A stretch of DNA of 64,000 bases from an uncultured Clostridia bacterium (GTDB taxonomy: Bacteria; Bacillota; Clostridia; Christensenellales; CAG-314): assembly GCA_947623225.1 (NCBI GenBank), contig CANQGO010000007.1, positions 230 through 64,229 of the forward strand. The letters are read 5' to 3'. The translations under genes were made by a program, and so were the position numbers. Below the pieces are notes generated by a model that saw nothing but the letters and a program-made list of their open reading frames with translations, made no database searches and was not told the origin of the DNA. Positions 1 to 5,576 of the stretch are shown here, piece after piece (the first letter of the stretch is position 1; each line of letters begins with the position of its first letter).

Positions 1-11
1 GGCTTGAAACC

Positions 12-1151
12 GTGAAATTGAGAAGCGACAGCGGCTATTCGAGTTATGAATCCGCAAAAACTCATCTCCCGATACTGAAAGCACATTTCGGGAATTGCCT
101 GTTACGCAATATCACTCCGCGAATGATACAGTCCTTCTACAACTACCTTACCACACGCACATACACGAAAAGCACCGTAACCGTCAAGAAGTCAATCCAA
201 GACCTCTTACGGGAGCATAAGTTAAACAAGACCACGGCGGCAAAAGCCTGCGGCATTGGAAAGCCCACTTTTGCGGCGGCTACGGTTATAGGCAGGAAAG
301 TCAGTTTGCAGACGGCTCAAAAGATATGCGGGTATTTCAAAATCCCGATAGACCGTTATTTTACCGTCGAAACCGTGCGGGAGAAATACTCCGTCGCCAC
401 GAACAGGGGCATACGGACACTTCTCGTTATGATACTCAACTCCGCACGGAAGCAACAGCTCATCGAGTACAACTACGCCACAAAGGAATATACCGAGCCT
501 ATCAAGGGGACGGAAAAGGGCAAGCGTTTTTACAGCGACAGCGAGGCACGGCGATTTCTCCAATTGACAATGGAAGAGAAAGACATCCGAAAGAAAACCG
601 TCTTTTCGCTATTCCTCTATTTGGGCTTACGCAACGCCGAACTATGCGGGCTTGAATGGCAGGATATAGACTTTGAACAAGGCACTCTCACCGTATCGCG
701 CAATTCGATTTACTTTTCCGACTTCGGCGTTTGCACGAAAGCACCCAAAACGCAAAACTCGGCGAGGACGGTATCAATGCCGCCGAAGCTGATAGAGTTA
801 CTGCACGAGTATAAGGAATGGTGGGACGACCAAAAGGAACAGCACGGCGACCTATGGCAAGAGAGCAAGCGGCTGTTCCTCAACGACAACGGGAAACCGA
901 TACACCCTTCCACGCCGAGCAACTGGCTTGAAAAGTTTCAGGCAGAACACGGGCTAGCCCACGTTTCTCCCCATGCGCTCCGACATACGAGCATAACCTT
1001 ACAAGTAATGGCGGGTATCCCCATAAAAGCCGTATCACAACGAGCAGGACACGCTAACGAGGCGATAACGCTTAATATCTACACGCACCTACTGCAAGAG
1101 GAAGATAGACGAGCCGCCGCAAAGTTCGATACTTACCTTTCGCCACAGTAA
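12..1151 (+). CDS. Tyrosine recombinase/integrase (N-terminus may extend beyond the window) with an internal XRE-like HTH insertion
   Basis: Catalytic motifs LGLRNAEL (R), APKT (K), HALRH (HxxR), AGH (H) and IYTH (Y); lies next to a tRNA. Confidence 0.95.
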   Translation: MKLRSDSGYSSYESAKTHLPILKAHFGNCLLRNITPRMIQSFYNYLTTRTYTKSTVTVKKSIQDLLREHKLNKTTAAKACGIGKPTFAAATVIGRKVSLQTAQKICGYFKIPIDRYFTVETVREKYSVATNRGIRTLLVMILNSARKQQLIEYNYATKEYTEPIKGTEKGKRFYSDSEARRFLQLTMEEKDIRKKTVFSLFLYLGLRNAELCGLEWQDIDFEQGTLTVSRNSIYFSDFGVCTKAPKTQNSARTVSMPPKLIELLHEYKEWWDDQKEQHGDLWQESKRLFLNDNGKPIHPSTPSNWLEKFQAEHGLAHVSPHALRHTSITLQVMAGIPIKAVSQRAGHANEAITLNIYTHLLQEEDRRAAAKFDTYLSPQ

Positions 1152-1174
1152 AGAAAAAAGAATCCGAGGAAAGG

Positions 1175-1202
1175 AAAAAGACTATCTTCCGATAGCCTTT
1201 TT
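1175..1202. terminator. Bidirectional intrinsic terminator between integrase and tRNA
   Basis: AAAAAGACTATC-TTCC-GATAGCCTTTTT hairpin with A/T tails between convergent genes. Confidence 0.7.
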
Positions 1203-1210
1203 CTTTGTTT

Positions 1211-1286
1211 TGGAGCTACTGGTCGGACTTGAACCGACGACCTGTTGATTACGAATCAACTGCTCTACCGACTGAGCCACAGTAGC
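1211..1286 (-). tRNA. tRNA-Thr(CGT), complete with encoded CCA
   Basis: Reverse complement GCTACTG TG GCTC AGTCGGTA GAGC A GTTGA TTCGTAA TCAAC AGGTC GTCGG TTCAAGT CCGAC CAGTAGC T CCA folds as a full cloverleaf. Confidence 0.97.
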
Positions 1287-1287
1287 A

Positions 1288-1405
1288 TTTTTACCTGTTT
1301 TTGCAGGTGTTTTTTACAGATTTTTTACAGTTTCTTTGCCGTTAGCGTCGCAATCCTCGATTTTCAGGCGATTTCCACGAGTTTTAGGTGGTTTTCAGGC
1401 GATTT
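1288..1405. repeat. Short direct repeats, candidate integrase arm-type or excisionase sites
   Basis: TTTTTTACAG at 1310-1319 and 1321-1330 (11-bp period); TTTTCAGGCGATTT at 1361-1374 and 1392-1405. Confidence 0.55.
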
Positions 1406-1433
1406 GCTACTGTCCGCACCATTCAACCAAATA

Positions 1434-1472
1434 ATTACGAATCACTCGCTCTACCGACTGAGCCACACCAGC
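1434..1472 (-). pseudogene. 5' half of a second, different tRNA-Thr(CGT), truncated just after the anticodon loop
   Basis: Reverse complement GCTGGTG TG GCTC AGTCGGTA GAGC G AGTGA TTCGTAAT, then unrelated sequence. Confidence 0.9.
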
Positions 1473-1489
1473 AATTGTATTGCTTACAT

Positions 1490-1518
1490 AGTATAGCAAA
1501 CAATTCGCGAATTGTCAA
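1490..1518 (-). promoter_or_regulatory. Sigma-A/70 promoter of the tRNA-Thr locus
   Basis: TTGACA-17 bp-TATACT directly upstream of the tRNA half. Confidence 0.85.
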
Positions 1519-1558
1519 AGATTATAGGGCAATTTAGTCCCTGTTTTTTTTCAAATAT

Positions 1559-2269
1559 CTACGCGAGCAGGGCGAGAGCCAGACCGAAGTAGATGAGCGT
1601 CTGTCCCGACAGGTAGGTGATCATTATATAGAAGTCGCGGCGGTTGATATCCTGCTTGTTGGTCACGTAATTGACGATGAGGTCGCTGACCACGTATATA
1701 AGGTAGCCCAGCAATATCATTATCTCATAGGGAACGAATCCGCCGTCCACTATCAGCAGTATGGCGAATGCTATATTGATGAAGTGGAAGCAGGCGTACG
1801 CCGGGCTGACGGTGGATATAGCCGCGCTGCCCTTGCCGCGCATGCAGTAGCCTATGATACCTGCCAGCACCACCACCAGCGCGAGTATGAGCCACACGTA
1901 CCAGGCGACGTGGTAGCTGAGCAGTTTTGTCTGATTGACAACGTTCAGCGTGTGCGCCACGGCAAATACCGCCGCACCGCTCAGGAAATACTTGGGTACT
2001 TTGTTGTTGATGAGCAGGATATCTCCTATAGCGGATATCCAGCAGGATATGTATACCAGCGGATGGTCCGGCACGAAGAACGCCATCGCCGCTCCCAGCA
2101 TCACCATGCACAGCGGCTTGGTCAGCTTGCGCCAGAACGGTATCATCAGAAAGCAAAATACCAGGTGCGCTACCACCACCGCCGCATACAGCGCGATGAA
2201 TATCCAAAATCCCGTTTCAAAGCCGATGCCCGTCTTGGCAAACGGCGAATCAATAGCCAATGCAGTCAT
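1559..2269 (-). CDS. YhhN/lysoplasmalogenase-family membrane protein
   Basis: Multi-TM protein with TKPL, SAIGDILL, FAVAH, VSDL and TYLSGQ motifs. Confidence 0.85.
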   Translation of the reverse strand: MTALAIDSPFAKTGIGFETGFWIFIALYAAVVVAHLVFCFLMIPFWRKLTKPLCMVMLGAAMAFFVPDHPLVYISCWISAIGDILLINNKVPKYFLSGAAVFAVAHTLNVVNQTKLLSYHVAWYVWLILALVVVLAGIIGYCMRGKGSAAISTVSPAYACFHFINIAFAILLIVDGGFVPYEIMILLGYLIYVVSDLIVNYVTNKQDINRRDFYIMITYLSGQTLIYFGLALALLA

Positions 2270-2350
2270 ATTTTCCTCTGTCTGTACGTTTTGTTGTATT
2301 GAGTATACCACATTACCGTTCAAATTGCAATGATTATTAGTACTTCCGCG

Positions 2351-3274
2351 TCACTTATGCGTCCGCCGCCTGCTCTGGCATACCACTATGACTATGTACG
2401 CCGCGAGCAGCACCGCGCAGGTGCCCAAGAGTATCGTATACATTGCCCAGGTAGGTATCTGCCTGCCGCCTACGTACAGGTTCCCGTCGAAGCCGTCCAT
2501 AAACGCCTTCACGCCCTCCTCCGACAGTCCCTGCCTGCTCAGCTCTTCCACATACCCCTGCATGAAGTGCTTGCGCATGATCCCCACGCCGTAGGTGCCC
2601 GGCAGTACGCCTATCACGTTGCGCATGCCGACGGAGAACTGCGACAGCGGCATGTACGCTCCGCAGATGAAGCCGTACAGACTGCTCACCAGACTGGAAA
2701 ACGCCGACAACGCGCCCTGCTGGGATATGAAACTCTCCACCACACCCGCCAGCAGCGTGCCGAAGAGCACACAGCACAGCGTATCCGCCAATATGAGCAA
2801 TACTCCCGTCACCGTTATGTACCAGCCCACTACAGCCAGATATACAAATCCCACCGCCAGTGCCGCCAGCATGACTATAAGCGTCACGATGAAGTTGCCC
2901 ACGAAGTAGCTCAGCGACAACGTCGCACTCTCTACCGGCGCGATCCTGAGGTCGTTGACCGTGCCATCTATCTTGTCCTGTATCATCACGGCATTGGAAC
3001 ACACCGCCACCGTCACCGAGCATACCGACATTACGCTGGAAAACAGCCAACTGCCCGCCAGCCCGTTGATGACGCGCTCCTCCGCCTCCATTCCGAACAG
3101 CCCCAGTATCCCCTTGAAACTATCTATGTATACCGTCCGCAAAAATGTAGCGAAGAGTACCAATAGTATCATCGGCGTGATCAGCGAGACAAAGAAAAGA
3201 AATTTGTCCTTGAAGTAGCATTTTATATTGCGCAAGGTCAACGCCCAAAATTTTCGCAATTCCGTCATATTCAC
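2351..3274 (-). CDS. ABC-2 type transporter permease
   Basis: About 6 TM helices, GAYMPLSQF motif, coupled to the ATPase gene. Confidence 0.9.
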   Translation of the reverse strand: MNMTELRKFWALTLRNIKCYFKDKFLFFVSLITPMILLVLFATFLRTVYIDSFKGILGLFGMEAEERVINGLAGSWLFSSVMSVCSVTVAVCSNAVMIQDKIDGTVNDLRIAPVESATLSLSYFVGNFIVTLIVMLAALAVGFVYLAVVGWYITVTGVLLILADTLCCVLFGTLLAGVVESFISQQGALSAFSSLVSSLYGFICGAYMPLSQFSVGMRNVIGVLPGTYGVGIMRKHFMQGYVEELSRQGLSEEGVKAFMDGFDGNLYVGGRQIPTWAMYTILLGTCAVLLAAYIVIVVCQSRRRTHK

Positions 3275-4179: not shown

Positions 4180-4738
4180 TGTCCCCTCCGAATAGTTTCT
4201 CCTTGATGGCAAAGAATTCCTCCGTGAGCAGGTTGCTCACCGTCTCCCATTCCCAGTCCAGATACCCCGTGGCGTACATGGTCGCTATCCCGTGTACGTA
4301 TACCCACATGTGCGTGTGCATGCGTATAGCCGCTTCCTCGTCTATTCCGTAACTCATCGCCCGCTCCGCTTCCCGTCGGAAACGAATCTCGTCCGCCTCG
4401 ACGCTGTCTGCGGTCGTGTCCCGCATGAACATGTACTTGAAGTAGTTCGGCCGCTCCTTGGCAAAGCGTATGTACCCCATACCGCTGGCTTTGTACTCCG
4501 GATACCTTCCGCTGCCTATCTCCGCCGCGATATACTCGTCATAGCAGCCGCGTATCCGCTCGCACACCTCCCTCTTCAGCGCGCCCAGCCCGCCGAAGCA
4601 CAGGTATATAGGCTGCGTCGAGCATTCGCACCTCGCCGCCACGTCCCGCACGTTGAGCGCGTCCATTCCCCGCTCCTCCACTATCTCACATGCCGCCTGC
4701 ACTATCCTCTCCGCTTCTATCTGCTTCTTCGCCGCCAT
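4163..4738 (-). CDS. TetR/AcrR-family regulator (WHG-type C-terminus)
   Basis: N-terminal HTH VRDVAARCECSTQPIY; C-terminal WVYVHGIA. Confidence 0.92.
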   Translation of the reverse strand: MAAKKQIEAERIVQAACEIVEERGMDALNVRDVAARCECSTQPIYLCFGGLGALKREVCERIRGCYDEYIAAEIGSGRYPEYKASGMGYIRFAKERPNYFKYMFMRDTTADSVEADEIRFRREAERAMSYGIDEEAAIRMHTHMWVYVHGIATMYATGYLDWEWETVSNLLTEEFFAIKEKLFGGDNGNRD

Positions 4739-4838: not shown

Positions 4839-5576
4839 TCAGTGCCTGAGCAATTTTTCCACGAAGGGTCCGTTGCAGTGTTGCATGTCCACTATCACGA
4901 ACATATCCACGCTGCCGAATACGGTATCCACGAAGGGTTGAGCGGACACCCTGGCACCCAGCGTCAGATACGCTTTGAATAGCGGCGGCAGTGCCGCAAA
5001 TACTTCCTTCTCGTCGTACTCCGACGGCTCGGGCAGCGTCATCGGTCCCAACGTGTCGCGTGAGCGTATGCGCAGATCCTCATCTACGACATAGTTGTGC
5101 ACCATATAGGATATTTCCTTGGCATACCTGTCGCGGTCCGTTCCGAAGAAGCTGGCGTCTCCCACCAGATACCTGACGCCGTTGTCCTGCATGTATCTGA
5201 GAATGAATTTCCATAGCAGCAGCATCACCGCACCGCCGCGGTACTCCTTCTTGACCACGGCTCGGCTGAATTCGCATATCTTGTCGCCACGCCGCTTGAG
5301 TTCATCCAGGTCGTACTCCTCTTCACATACAAAGCGTCTGCCGTCGGTGAGGCTGTCGCTCTCTATCATGCGATAGTAGCCCACCACTTCGCCGGTGTCC
5401 TCTTCCTTGACTATGAGGTGACGGGCGTAGCCGTCGTACTCATTGACGTCCCGCTGCTCGGCGTTGGTATTGTCCGAGCGGTATTCCAATATCATATCAT
5501 TGTAGCGCAGGCGGTATATCCTCTCCATCTCCTCGGGCGTAGAGGCAAATCCCACCCAGAACTTGTGCTGTGGCAT
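4839..5576 (-). CDS. GNAT-fold N-acyltransferase, OlsB/N-acyl amino acid synthase-like
   Basis: YRLRY, DVNEYD..ARHL, VVGYYR, CEFSRAVV..YRGG, LPPLFKAYL and FGSVD motifs. Confidence 0.8.
   Translation of the reverse strand: MPQHKFWVGFASTPEEMERIYRLRYNDMILEYRSDNTNAEQRDVNEYDGYARHLIVKEEDTGEVVGYYRMIESDSLTDGRRFVCEEEYDLDELKRRGDKICEFSRAVVKKEYRGGAVMLLLWKFILRYMQDNGVRYLVGDASFFGTDRDRYAKEISYMVHNYVVDEDLRIRSRDTLGPMTLPEPSEYDEKEVFAALPPLFKAYLTLGARVSAQPFVDTVFGSVDMFVIVDMQHCNGPFVEKLLRH

Follow-up and report, generated by a model that had tools for sequence, protein, structure and literature searches.

We analyzed a stretch of 64,000 nucleotides from the genome of an uncultured Clostridia bacterium (GCA_947623225.1, hereafter G000), covering positions 230-64229 of contig CANQGO010000007.1 (C7), and refer to this whole stretch as the window. 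Its left end very probably carries the integrase-side end of an integrative element of approximately 14 kb, at positions 3-1442, which has split the host gene for tRNA-Thr(CGT) and supplies a complete tRNA-Thr(CGT) of its own; host DNA begins at position 1443. The G000 assembly comprises 1.48 Mb in 52 contigs and represents a bin of 92% completeness; just 229 bp of C7 lie to the left of the window, and the integrase gene is interrupted by the contig start. A second host of the element, G041, belongs to a different family (f8, compared with f1 for G000; it is listed as G331 in the order-wide search described below) and displays both ends of the insertion.

Read along the minus strand, the junction in the window opens with the host tRNA promoter TTGACA-17-TATACT (1518-1490), which agrees with 11 of the 12 consensus positions, has a TG extension and is the sole promoter-like site that a scan found in 1100-1620. 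It is followed by the orphaned 5' half of the host tRNA-Thr(CGT), a stump of 39 nt (1472-1434) that reads GCTGGTG...AGTGA TTCGTAAT, also written GCTGGTG...GCGAGTGATTCGTAAT, and that ends in the common core ATTCGTAAT (1442-1434), as defined by the junction and by comparison of attL with attR. A spacer of exactly 147 nt (1433-1287), the P' arm of the element, comes next; on the plus strand it contains the direct repeats TTTTCAGGCGATTT (twice) and TTTTTTACAG(A/T) (twice), together with a stretch resembling a decayed tRNA 3' part. Beyond it lies the complete element-borne tRNA-Thr(CGT) (1286-1211), recognized by both ARAGORN and Rfam, with the acceptor strand GCTACTG, the anticodon stem GTTGA/TCAAC and an encoded CCA. 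Between the 3' end of this tRNA and the stop codon of the convergent tyrosine integrase gene (3-1151, plus strand, assigned with Pfam and cut at its 5' end by the contig start), the sequence itself shows the hairpin GGCTATC-GGAA-GATAGTC with TTTTT behind it (1197-1175, minus strand). This hairpin and its T-run are also kept in G041 and are missing from the terminator-scan listing; they are likely to form a two-way terminator. The host promoter now faces the stump, then the arm and then the element tRNA, and the layout claimed in an earlier note on this DNA (promoter, 5' half, 147-bp repeat-bearing spacer, complete tRNA, terminator and convergent integrase) is found in full on the minus strand.

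The insertion can be delimited at both ends in G041, where the integrase is encoded in the middle of an 80-kb contig by a complete open reading frame of 477 codons, compared with the 459 present in G000, and is 100% identical in amino acid sequence to the copy in the window. The two loci share 98.06% nucleotide identity across 1,704 bp that begin at the contig start of C7 and end at position 1474 of the window, which is the 5' end of the stump. Within the spacer, 1416-1287 is 100% identical in the two genomes, and the two differences fall at 1419 and 1417. The stump in G041 is of that host's own type, GCTACTG..GCAGCTGA (GCTACTG..CAGCTGA), and stands behind a different promoter and a DAGK-type gene; it joins the same element sequence (TATTTGGTTGAATG...) directly after TTCGTAAT, at the same base as in G000. 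The two hosts differ in their own 5' halves but share the spacer and the complete tRNA, and both of these are accordingly assigned to the element. At the far end, 14,350 bp away, non-tRNA element DNA (...GTAGGGTCAGTATT) leads into ATTCGTAAT, the 3' half of the host tRNA and a terminator. The 5' half and the far-end 3' half of G041 together equal the intact tRNA of G049, G054 and G036 base for base, and G049 has the same upstream gene, promoter and downstream terminator as the G041 locus. The host gene in G041 is therefore split in the anticodon loop over the 9-bp core and restored at neither junction; for the window, the earlier note had likewise proposed a host gene that is split at the anticodon loop and not restored.

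The core ATTCGTAAT spans the 7-nt anticodon loop with one anticodon-stem base on each side, the last of the 5' strand and the first of the 3' strand. It is the only block common to attL, attR and the element tRNA in G041, and in both hosts it is the point at which host-specific sequence stops and element sequence starts. These comparisons place the crossover within the 9-bp core, at 1434-1442 of the window. Sublocation classes of integration into tRNA genes were reportedly set out by Williams in 2002, and phage P22 is said to use tRNA-Thr(CGU). Beyond the host 3' half of G041 (L076 4440-4560, minus strand) there is a second decayed tRNA 3' fragment, consisting of GGTCGCCGGTTCAAGTCCG, approximately 40 nt and CGGTAGCTC, which is accompanied by a repeat of the downstream flank and may be the scar of an element that targets the T loop.

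The identity of the stump was established by querying 41 genomes (G000 itself, 24 from its genus and 16 from its order) with window 1150-2400; the loci inspected were those returned by this search and eight further stretches, other same-genus matches being left out. The stump is identical at 39 of 39 positions to the start of the native tRNA-Thr(CGT) of the genus. An intact gene of this GCTGGTG type is present in seven same-genus genomes (G019, G018, G009, G022, G011, G023 and G016), preceded by the same promoter in G019, G018, G009, G022 and G011, the five whose upstream region was inspected. None of the seven has a half-plus-full arrangement, which bears out the earlier note in its expectation that element-free relatives would hold an undivided gene. 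The native-type host 3' half (TCACTAGG...CACCAGCACCA, also written ..CACTAGGTCGGGGG..CACCAGCACCA) was not found in the G000 assembly by exact or degenerate patterns, and the single CACCAGC match there, on contig C1, was rejected as a candidate, being part of tRNA-Leu(CAA). No second tRNA-Thr(CGT) was found in G000, nor among the 38 of 39 Rfam tRNA matches in G041 that have a typed anticodon.

Two further features of these native genes were observed. Downstream of the intact tRNA-Thr(CGT) of G009 (contig C30, L013) are two pseudo-tRNA copies, 442 bp apart at approximately 4510-4620 and 4950-5060, in each of which a 5' half runs as far as TTCGTAAT, gives way to about 43 unrelated nt and then resumes with the 3' part CACTAGGTCGGGGG..; they resemble scars that earlier insertions left at the same core. 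The native tRNA-Thr(CGT) of the genus (L002, L003, L005 and L007, from G019, G018, G009 and G022) has the T loop TCCGATT, with C at the U55 position; the T loop of the element tRNA is TCCGAGT in the G041 copy, compared with the usual TTCAAGT in the window copy. To our knowledge, U at tRNA position 55 is nearly universal.

In the usual arrangement for an integrase convergent with a tRNA, integration regenerates the target; the tRNA at 1211-1286 would then be the regenerated host gene and the half upstream of it an older, unrelated scar. At most loci of distant relatives a single tRNA does stand without an extra half (7 of 11 tRNA-bearing loci in the order-wide set and 8 of 9 in the set from public collections). 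However, two hosts from different families, with differing native tRNAs, have in common both the 147-bp spacer and the 5' part of the complete tRNA, and the homology between G000 and G041 ends at the 5' end of the stump rather than inside the complete tRNA. The earlier note had named a duplicate of the 3' end of the element tRNA (1211-1250) at the far end as the finding that would speak for regeneration; the far-end fragment of G041 pairs instead with the stump, and the two make up the native gene of relatives. We exclude standard integration because the far end of G041 and its stump rebuild the native gene, and the spacer and tRNA travel with the element; the probability that we would still grant it is minimal.

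The complete tRNA (1286-1211) scores 73.4 bits with Rfam and folds into a cloverleaf of -27.2 kcal/mol (z -3.9). It is identical to the native tRNA of the host genus at 59 of 76 positions and to the G041-type native tRNA at 72 of 76, and it is 89-94% like the tRNA-Thr(CGT) of other families in the order, as found in the 41-genome search; the contention that the element brings a whole, sequence-divergent tRNA with the same anticodon has thus held up, the same gene being present in two hosts. The G000 and G041 copies differ at 6 of 76 positions, two of which are the two sides of one T-stem pair (1236/1224) with pairing kept, and from this pattern the element tRNA looks maintained.

We propose that the tyrosine integrase would recombine the 9-bp core ATTCGTAAT with the host tRNA-Thr(CGT) gene. 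All that the core-side end of the element offers is a decayed 3' part that lacks a T arm, so that the host gene would be left as two dead pieces, the 5' half staying behind the host promoter and the 3' half being moved to the far end of the element, where it is visible in G041. To compensate, the element would bring a complete tRNA-Thr(CGT) gene, set 147 bp inward of the junction and co-oriented with the broken one. When the element is integrated, the captured host promoter would transcribe the stump, the arm and the element tRNA, from which RNase P would free the tRNA, and decoding of ACG might come to depend on element DNA. When the element is excised as a circle, the tRNA could instead be driven from the other arm, by a promoter-like site that faces the core; the far arm in G041 has such a site, TTGACT-17-TAAAAT. 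Because only 9 bp need match, hosts with differing acceptor and anticodon stems could be entered. Promoter capture is supported by the co-oriented layout, which recurs in G046, G047, G173 and G181, and by the lack of a promoter-like site between the stump and the tRNA.

Several observations weigh against this account. The scan that returned no promoter-like site on the minus strand of the spacer (1287-1433) was a simple consensus match, which a weak promoter there could escape. G041 also has tRNA-Thr(TGT) and tRNA-Thr(GGT), and tRNA-Thr(CGT) may for this reason be dispensable and its replacement a convenience rather than a necessity. The junction hybrid (1472-1405) reaches 31.3 bits in G000 and 35.6 in G041, above the threshold of 29 bits for the Rfam tRNA model. 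The exact element was found in only two copies, those of G000 and G041, in the collections searched. Among public contigs mapped to window 1-2400 (four runs from three studies), none runs from element DNA into the unique flank of this host, and because no public contig bridges the junction, its evidence in this host comes from contig C7 alone. Finally, the break of C7 falls inside the integrase, leaving the far end and the body of the element outside the G000 assembly: the G041 element body is absent from these 1.48 Mb by blastn and tblastn, with generic leucine-rich repeat similarity only, and the G000 copy could be a truncated relic.

The hybrid deserves closer attention. After TTCGTAAT, the element end reads TATTTGG...CAGTAGCA (past the core, TTATT and a few more bases lead to CAGTAGCA), and its tRNA 3'-like stretch at approximately 1426-1405 resembles a tRNA 3' part that has decayed and has no T arm. 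The statement in the earlier note that the 5' half stops right after the core is correct for the host part; the DNA that follows is not random, and its 3'-like character accounts for the 31.3 bits. Neither the G000 nor the G041 hybrid is called by ARAGORN or folds into a cloverleaf; the T arm is missing, and by manual count there are 17 nt where the variable loop and T arm need 22. By these features of its sequence the junction hybrid is judged not to be a tRNA.

If the G000 copy arose by the mechanism proposed here and has since become a dead remnant, with the integrase end alone fixed in the chromosome and immobile, then no other part of the G041 element would be expected at the DNA or protein level in the assembly, as is the case, and the contig break inside the integrase gene would also fit. 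The integrase frame is nevertheless open over the 459 codons present, from the first base of the contig, and 100% identical in amino acid sequence to the copy in the complete G041 element; moreover, G000 is an incomplete bin in 52 contigs, and such bins often omit mobile DNA. We regard a relic as unlikely, if less so than the other alternatives considered.

A different concern is that C7 is an assembly chimera, which joins the element junction of another organism to the promoter of this host via shared tRNA sequence. The source is metagenomic, several related tRNA-Thr(CGT) contexts occur in the four public runs, and no independent contig spans 1400-1535. Set against this, no more than 8 nt separate the host-specific bases (GCGAGTGA, 1449-1442) from the element-specific TATTTGG (1433-1427); the two longest stretches in common with the other host's junction, 20 nt and 11 nt, would be too short for assembler words of at least 21; and the same kind of junction is seen in G041, G046 and G047. 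A chimera is accordingly very hard to credit. The public runs do contain the integrase region, in all four cases, including one 10-kb contig with the differences of the G041 variant, and contigs of 203 nt (1261-1463) and 162 nt (1294-1455) extend from the tRNA or spacer into the stump. Each of the 4 runs contains a spacer variant with 79 other nt in place of 89 of the spacer. Public contigs that part from the window at 1434 and continue into an intact native-type tRNA were rejected as evidence of an empty site in this strain; they have other promoters and hence stem from related species.

With the split gene and replacement tRNA as the favored interpretation, the content of the element can be described from G041. 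The window integrase matches Phage_integrase (9.5e-28), Phage_int_SAM_3 (9e-07) and Phage_int_SAM_5 (9.5e-07) in Pfam. Besides the integrase, the G041 element encodes a rolling-circle Rep (PF23343, phrog_942), an XRE regulator and a 69-residue HTH_17 protein, a weak match and a possible excisionase. On the other strand are a Tpt1/KptA RNA 2'-phosphotransferase (3.6e-43) and, adjoining it, a GTPase fused to a SAM-lyase-like domain (both in L076 6886-8762, minus strand), a collagen/BspA-LRR protein and several unmatched open reading frames. For an element that replaces a tRNA, carriage of an RNA-repair-type enzyme may not be accidental. The repeat TTACAGA(T) occurs at least twice on each arm of the G041 element, and these direct repeats are candidate arm-type integrase sites. 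No capsid, portal or terminase family was matched by the 20 open reading frames of the element other than the integrase (Pfam and PHROGs), and for this reason we use the term integrative element rather than prophage; the collagen/BspA-LRR protein matched PHROG 'tail' families, and six larger open reading frames have no match, so that the element could yet be a very divergent virus.

The earlier note had also proposed checking whether homologues of the integrase are followed by a full and a half tRNA. An order-wide search of 301 genomes (cut-off E 1e-40) gave a match in 35, from which 30 loci were drawn and inspected for tRNA genes within ±1.5 kb. A tRNA is present at 11 of the 30, and at 4 of these 11 there is an extra 5' stump of the same anticodon upstream: G000, G041, G173 and G181. 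Full and half tRNA thus occur together at the last two, and the half is lacking at the other 7 tRNA-bearing loci. In G173 the tRNA is tRNA-Thr(GGT), the spacer 27 nt and the integrase 32% identical to that of the window; in G181 the corresponding values are tRNA-Arg(CCT), 131 nt and 30%. The matching host-type 3' half lies 11.7 kb off in G181 and on another contig in G173. Of 9 loci adjacent to a tRNA in an earlier set, drawn from public collections, only that of G041 had a stump. A 22-nt junction pattern, searched across 185,579 species genomes, returned just G041 and one groundwater contig, which has no tRNA and was taken as a chance match; the pattern was found in no viral contig. No relatives of the integrase were found above 35% identity in metagenome contigs or above 31% in viral contigs. 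In G181, the approximately 100 bp downstream of the element tRNA-Arg(CCT) (L218 1330-1430) consist of a terminator and TTTTGGAATAATTTT-type repeats, and the same stretch recurs almost unchanged downstream of the far-end host 3' half (L225 1545-1645); the element may once have captured an entire tRNA locus, or it may be abutted by a second, related element.

Two relatives of G041 have comparable structures at tRNA-Thr(CGT). G046 has a different spacer, of approximately 128 nt, and a replacement tRNA identical to that of the window, constituting a third element variant in which the gene adjoining the replacement tRNA encodes a Macro-domain protein rather than an integrase. In G047, at least two more units, each with an element-type 5' half cut at the same base, stand behind the host stump and arm; this array reaches the contig end and may in part be an assembler loop, and it points to the replacement tRNA being a target in its turn. 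The window integrase had no match in G046, G047, G049, G054 or G055 at E 1e-30. A broader interpretation, to which we give somewhat less than even weight, is that an order-wide guild of small integrase elements uses 9-bp landing pads in tRNA genes, places a promoter-less replacement tRNA behind the cut and leaves the host promoter to express a foreign tRNA. It would include at least three integrase lineages (approximately 30% identical to one another, at Thr(CGT), Thr(GGT) and Arg(CCT)); since the replacement gene contains the same core, it would be the next target, with serial overwriting of tRNA genes and movement of alleles between families. If this is true, elements, rather than vertical descent, set the tRNA-Thr(CGT) sequence of a lineage.

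On the host side of the window junction, a gene for a YhhN-family membrane protein (1559-2323, minus strand, Pfam) is followed further upstream by ABC-2 transporter genes, and 1559-2323 is matched at 69-73% nucleotide identity in G019, G018, G008 and G009. The tRNA-Thr(CGT) and the YhhN gene are collinear in G019 and in the window; in G018 (L003, contig C6) and G009 (L005, contig C30) the tRNA and its promoter are inverted relative to the YhhN gene. Elsewhere in G000, contig C12 (53511-53906) holds three tandem copies of tRNA-Thr(GGT) without the 5' acceptor strand, 163 bp apart and each followed by a terminator, at the contig end and beside an XRE-like gene; the start of the intact tRNA-Thr(GGT) lies at the end of contig C44 (1-64). 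Contig C38 (1-407) holds three tandem partial copies of tRNA-Arg(ACG) (Rfam model positions 6-65), 172 bp apart, each with a GC-rich motif in front of it that ends in ..CACGAGCCGAAGGCGAGTAT. Motifs of a similar kind stand beside partial tRNAs in G011, G039 and G009, and repeats of this type may be a separate family of tRNA-associated repeats.

The arrangement has consequences for annotation and for use. Where island finders rely on a regenerated tRNA and a displaced 3' fragment, they will overlook such elements or misplace them, and a tRNA reported as that of the host is in fact foreign. The replacement tRNA stands 27-147 nt behind the stump in constant orientation, suggesting a compact cassette of attP, tRNA and integrase, which could be used as an integration tool in bacteria that resist engineering.

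Among known systems, Islander-type islands and prophages with an anticodon-loop crossover, as defined in PMC4383910, resemble this element: a tyrosine integrase is convergent with a neighboring tRNA, and the far end holds a displaced 3' fragment. In those cases the 3' part carried by the element regenerates the target; here it does not, and the 5' fragment is displaced too, the element end carrying only a decayed 3' part and the hybrids failing both ARAGORN and the fold. The principle of breaking a tRNA gene and bringing a substitute is already published as tRNA-dependent lysogeny (mBio 2024, PMC10865867). In the text of that article, Guerrero-Bustamante and Hatfull describe it for actinobacteriophages (Fionnbharth/K4, Cluster L and Cain, and the Gordonia phages BrutonGaster, OneUp and Mollymur), with cores of 8-17 bp, a tRNA that is not rebuilt and a cognate phage tRNA that is needed for viable lysogens; the phenomenon is expected there outside Actinobacteria too, with Lj965 cited. 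The element in the window resembles these phages, so far as that text describes them, in its tyrosine integrase with an arm-binding domain (SAM-like here), in an attB within a host tRNA gene (the stump matches at 39 of 39 positions, and both halves flank the G041 element), in a short core (9 bp here) at which no tRNA is rebuilt (attR being known from G041 only), in carrying a tRNA of the same kind as the disrupted gene (tRNA-Thr(CGT), 1211-1286) and in putative arm-type sites on either side of the core.

It differs from them in that the published cases are temperate phages of Actinobacteria in which the need for the tRNA was shown by genetics (PMC10865867), whereas the G041 element has no phage structural genes in the open reading frames scanned, and the present hosts are uncultured gut Clostridia of two families. 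The tRNA of Fionnbharth is described in the same text as lying elsewhere in the genome, overlapping gene 37 and having its own demonstrated promoter; here the tRNA follows the core after 147 bp, in the orientation of the broken gene, and no promoter-like site intervenes. The mycobacteriophage Gaia (Cluster X) has an 8-bp core in tRNA-Leu(CAA) and its own tRNA-Leu(CAA) beside the integrase, 'downstream of Int' (PMC10865867); Gaia is a large phage with a different tRNA and another integrase family, and the text of PMC10865867 does not state that a host promoter reads its tRNA. Two prophages like Mesorhizobium phage Lo5R7ANS in Sinorhizobium meliloti inactivate tRNA-Leu(UAG) and carry a substitute, according to the text of PMC11476347, and the Lactobacillus johnsonii prophage Lj965, as cited in PMC10865867, inactivates its target tRNA and carries an equivalent. 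In these as in our case, the equivalent tRNA is closer to those of other taxa (PMC11476347, PMC10865867); unlike our case, they are prophages of Proteobacteria and Lactobacillus. The literature searched, which did not extend to article supplements (including the att-site figures of PMC10865867), held no description of a replacement tRNA placed for a captured host promoter. What is distinctive here is the lack of detected phage structural genes, the compact order of core, arm and tRNA in the path of the host promoter, and the occurrence in two host families and with three integrase lineages. With these comparisons, a strategy for which proof has so far come from actinobacteriophages alone is extended to uncultured gut Clostridia and to integrative elements that are not phage-like, and the presence of the same element in two families whose target tRNAs differ in both stems provides natural evidence for the benefit that was predicted for it.

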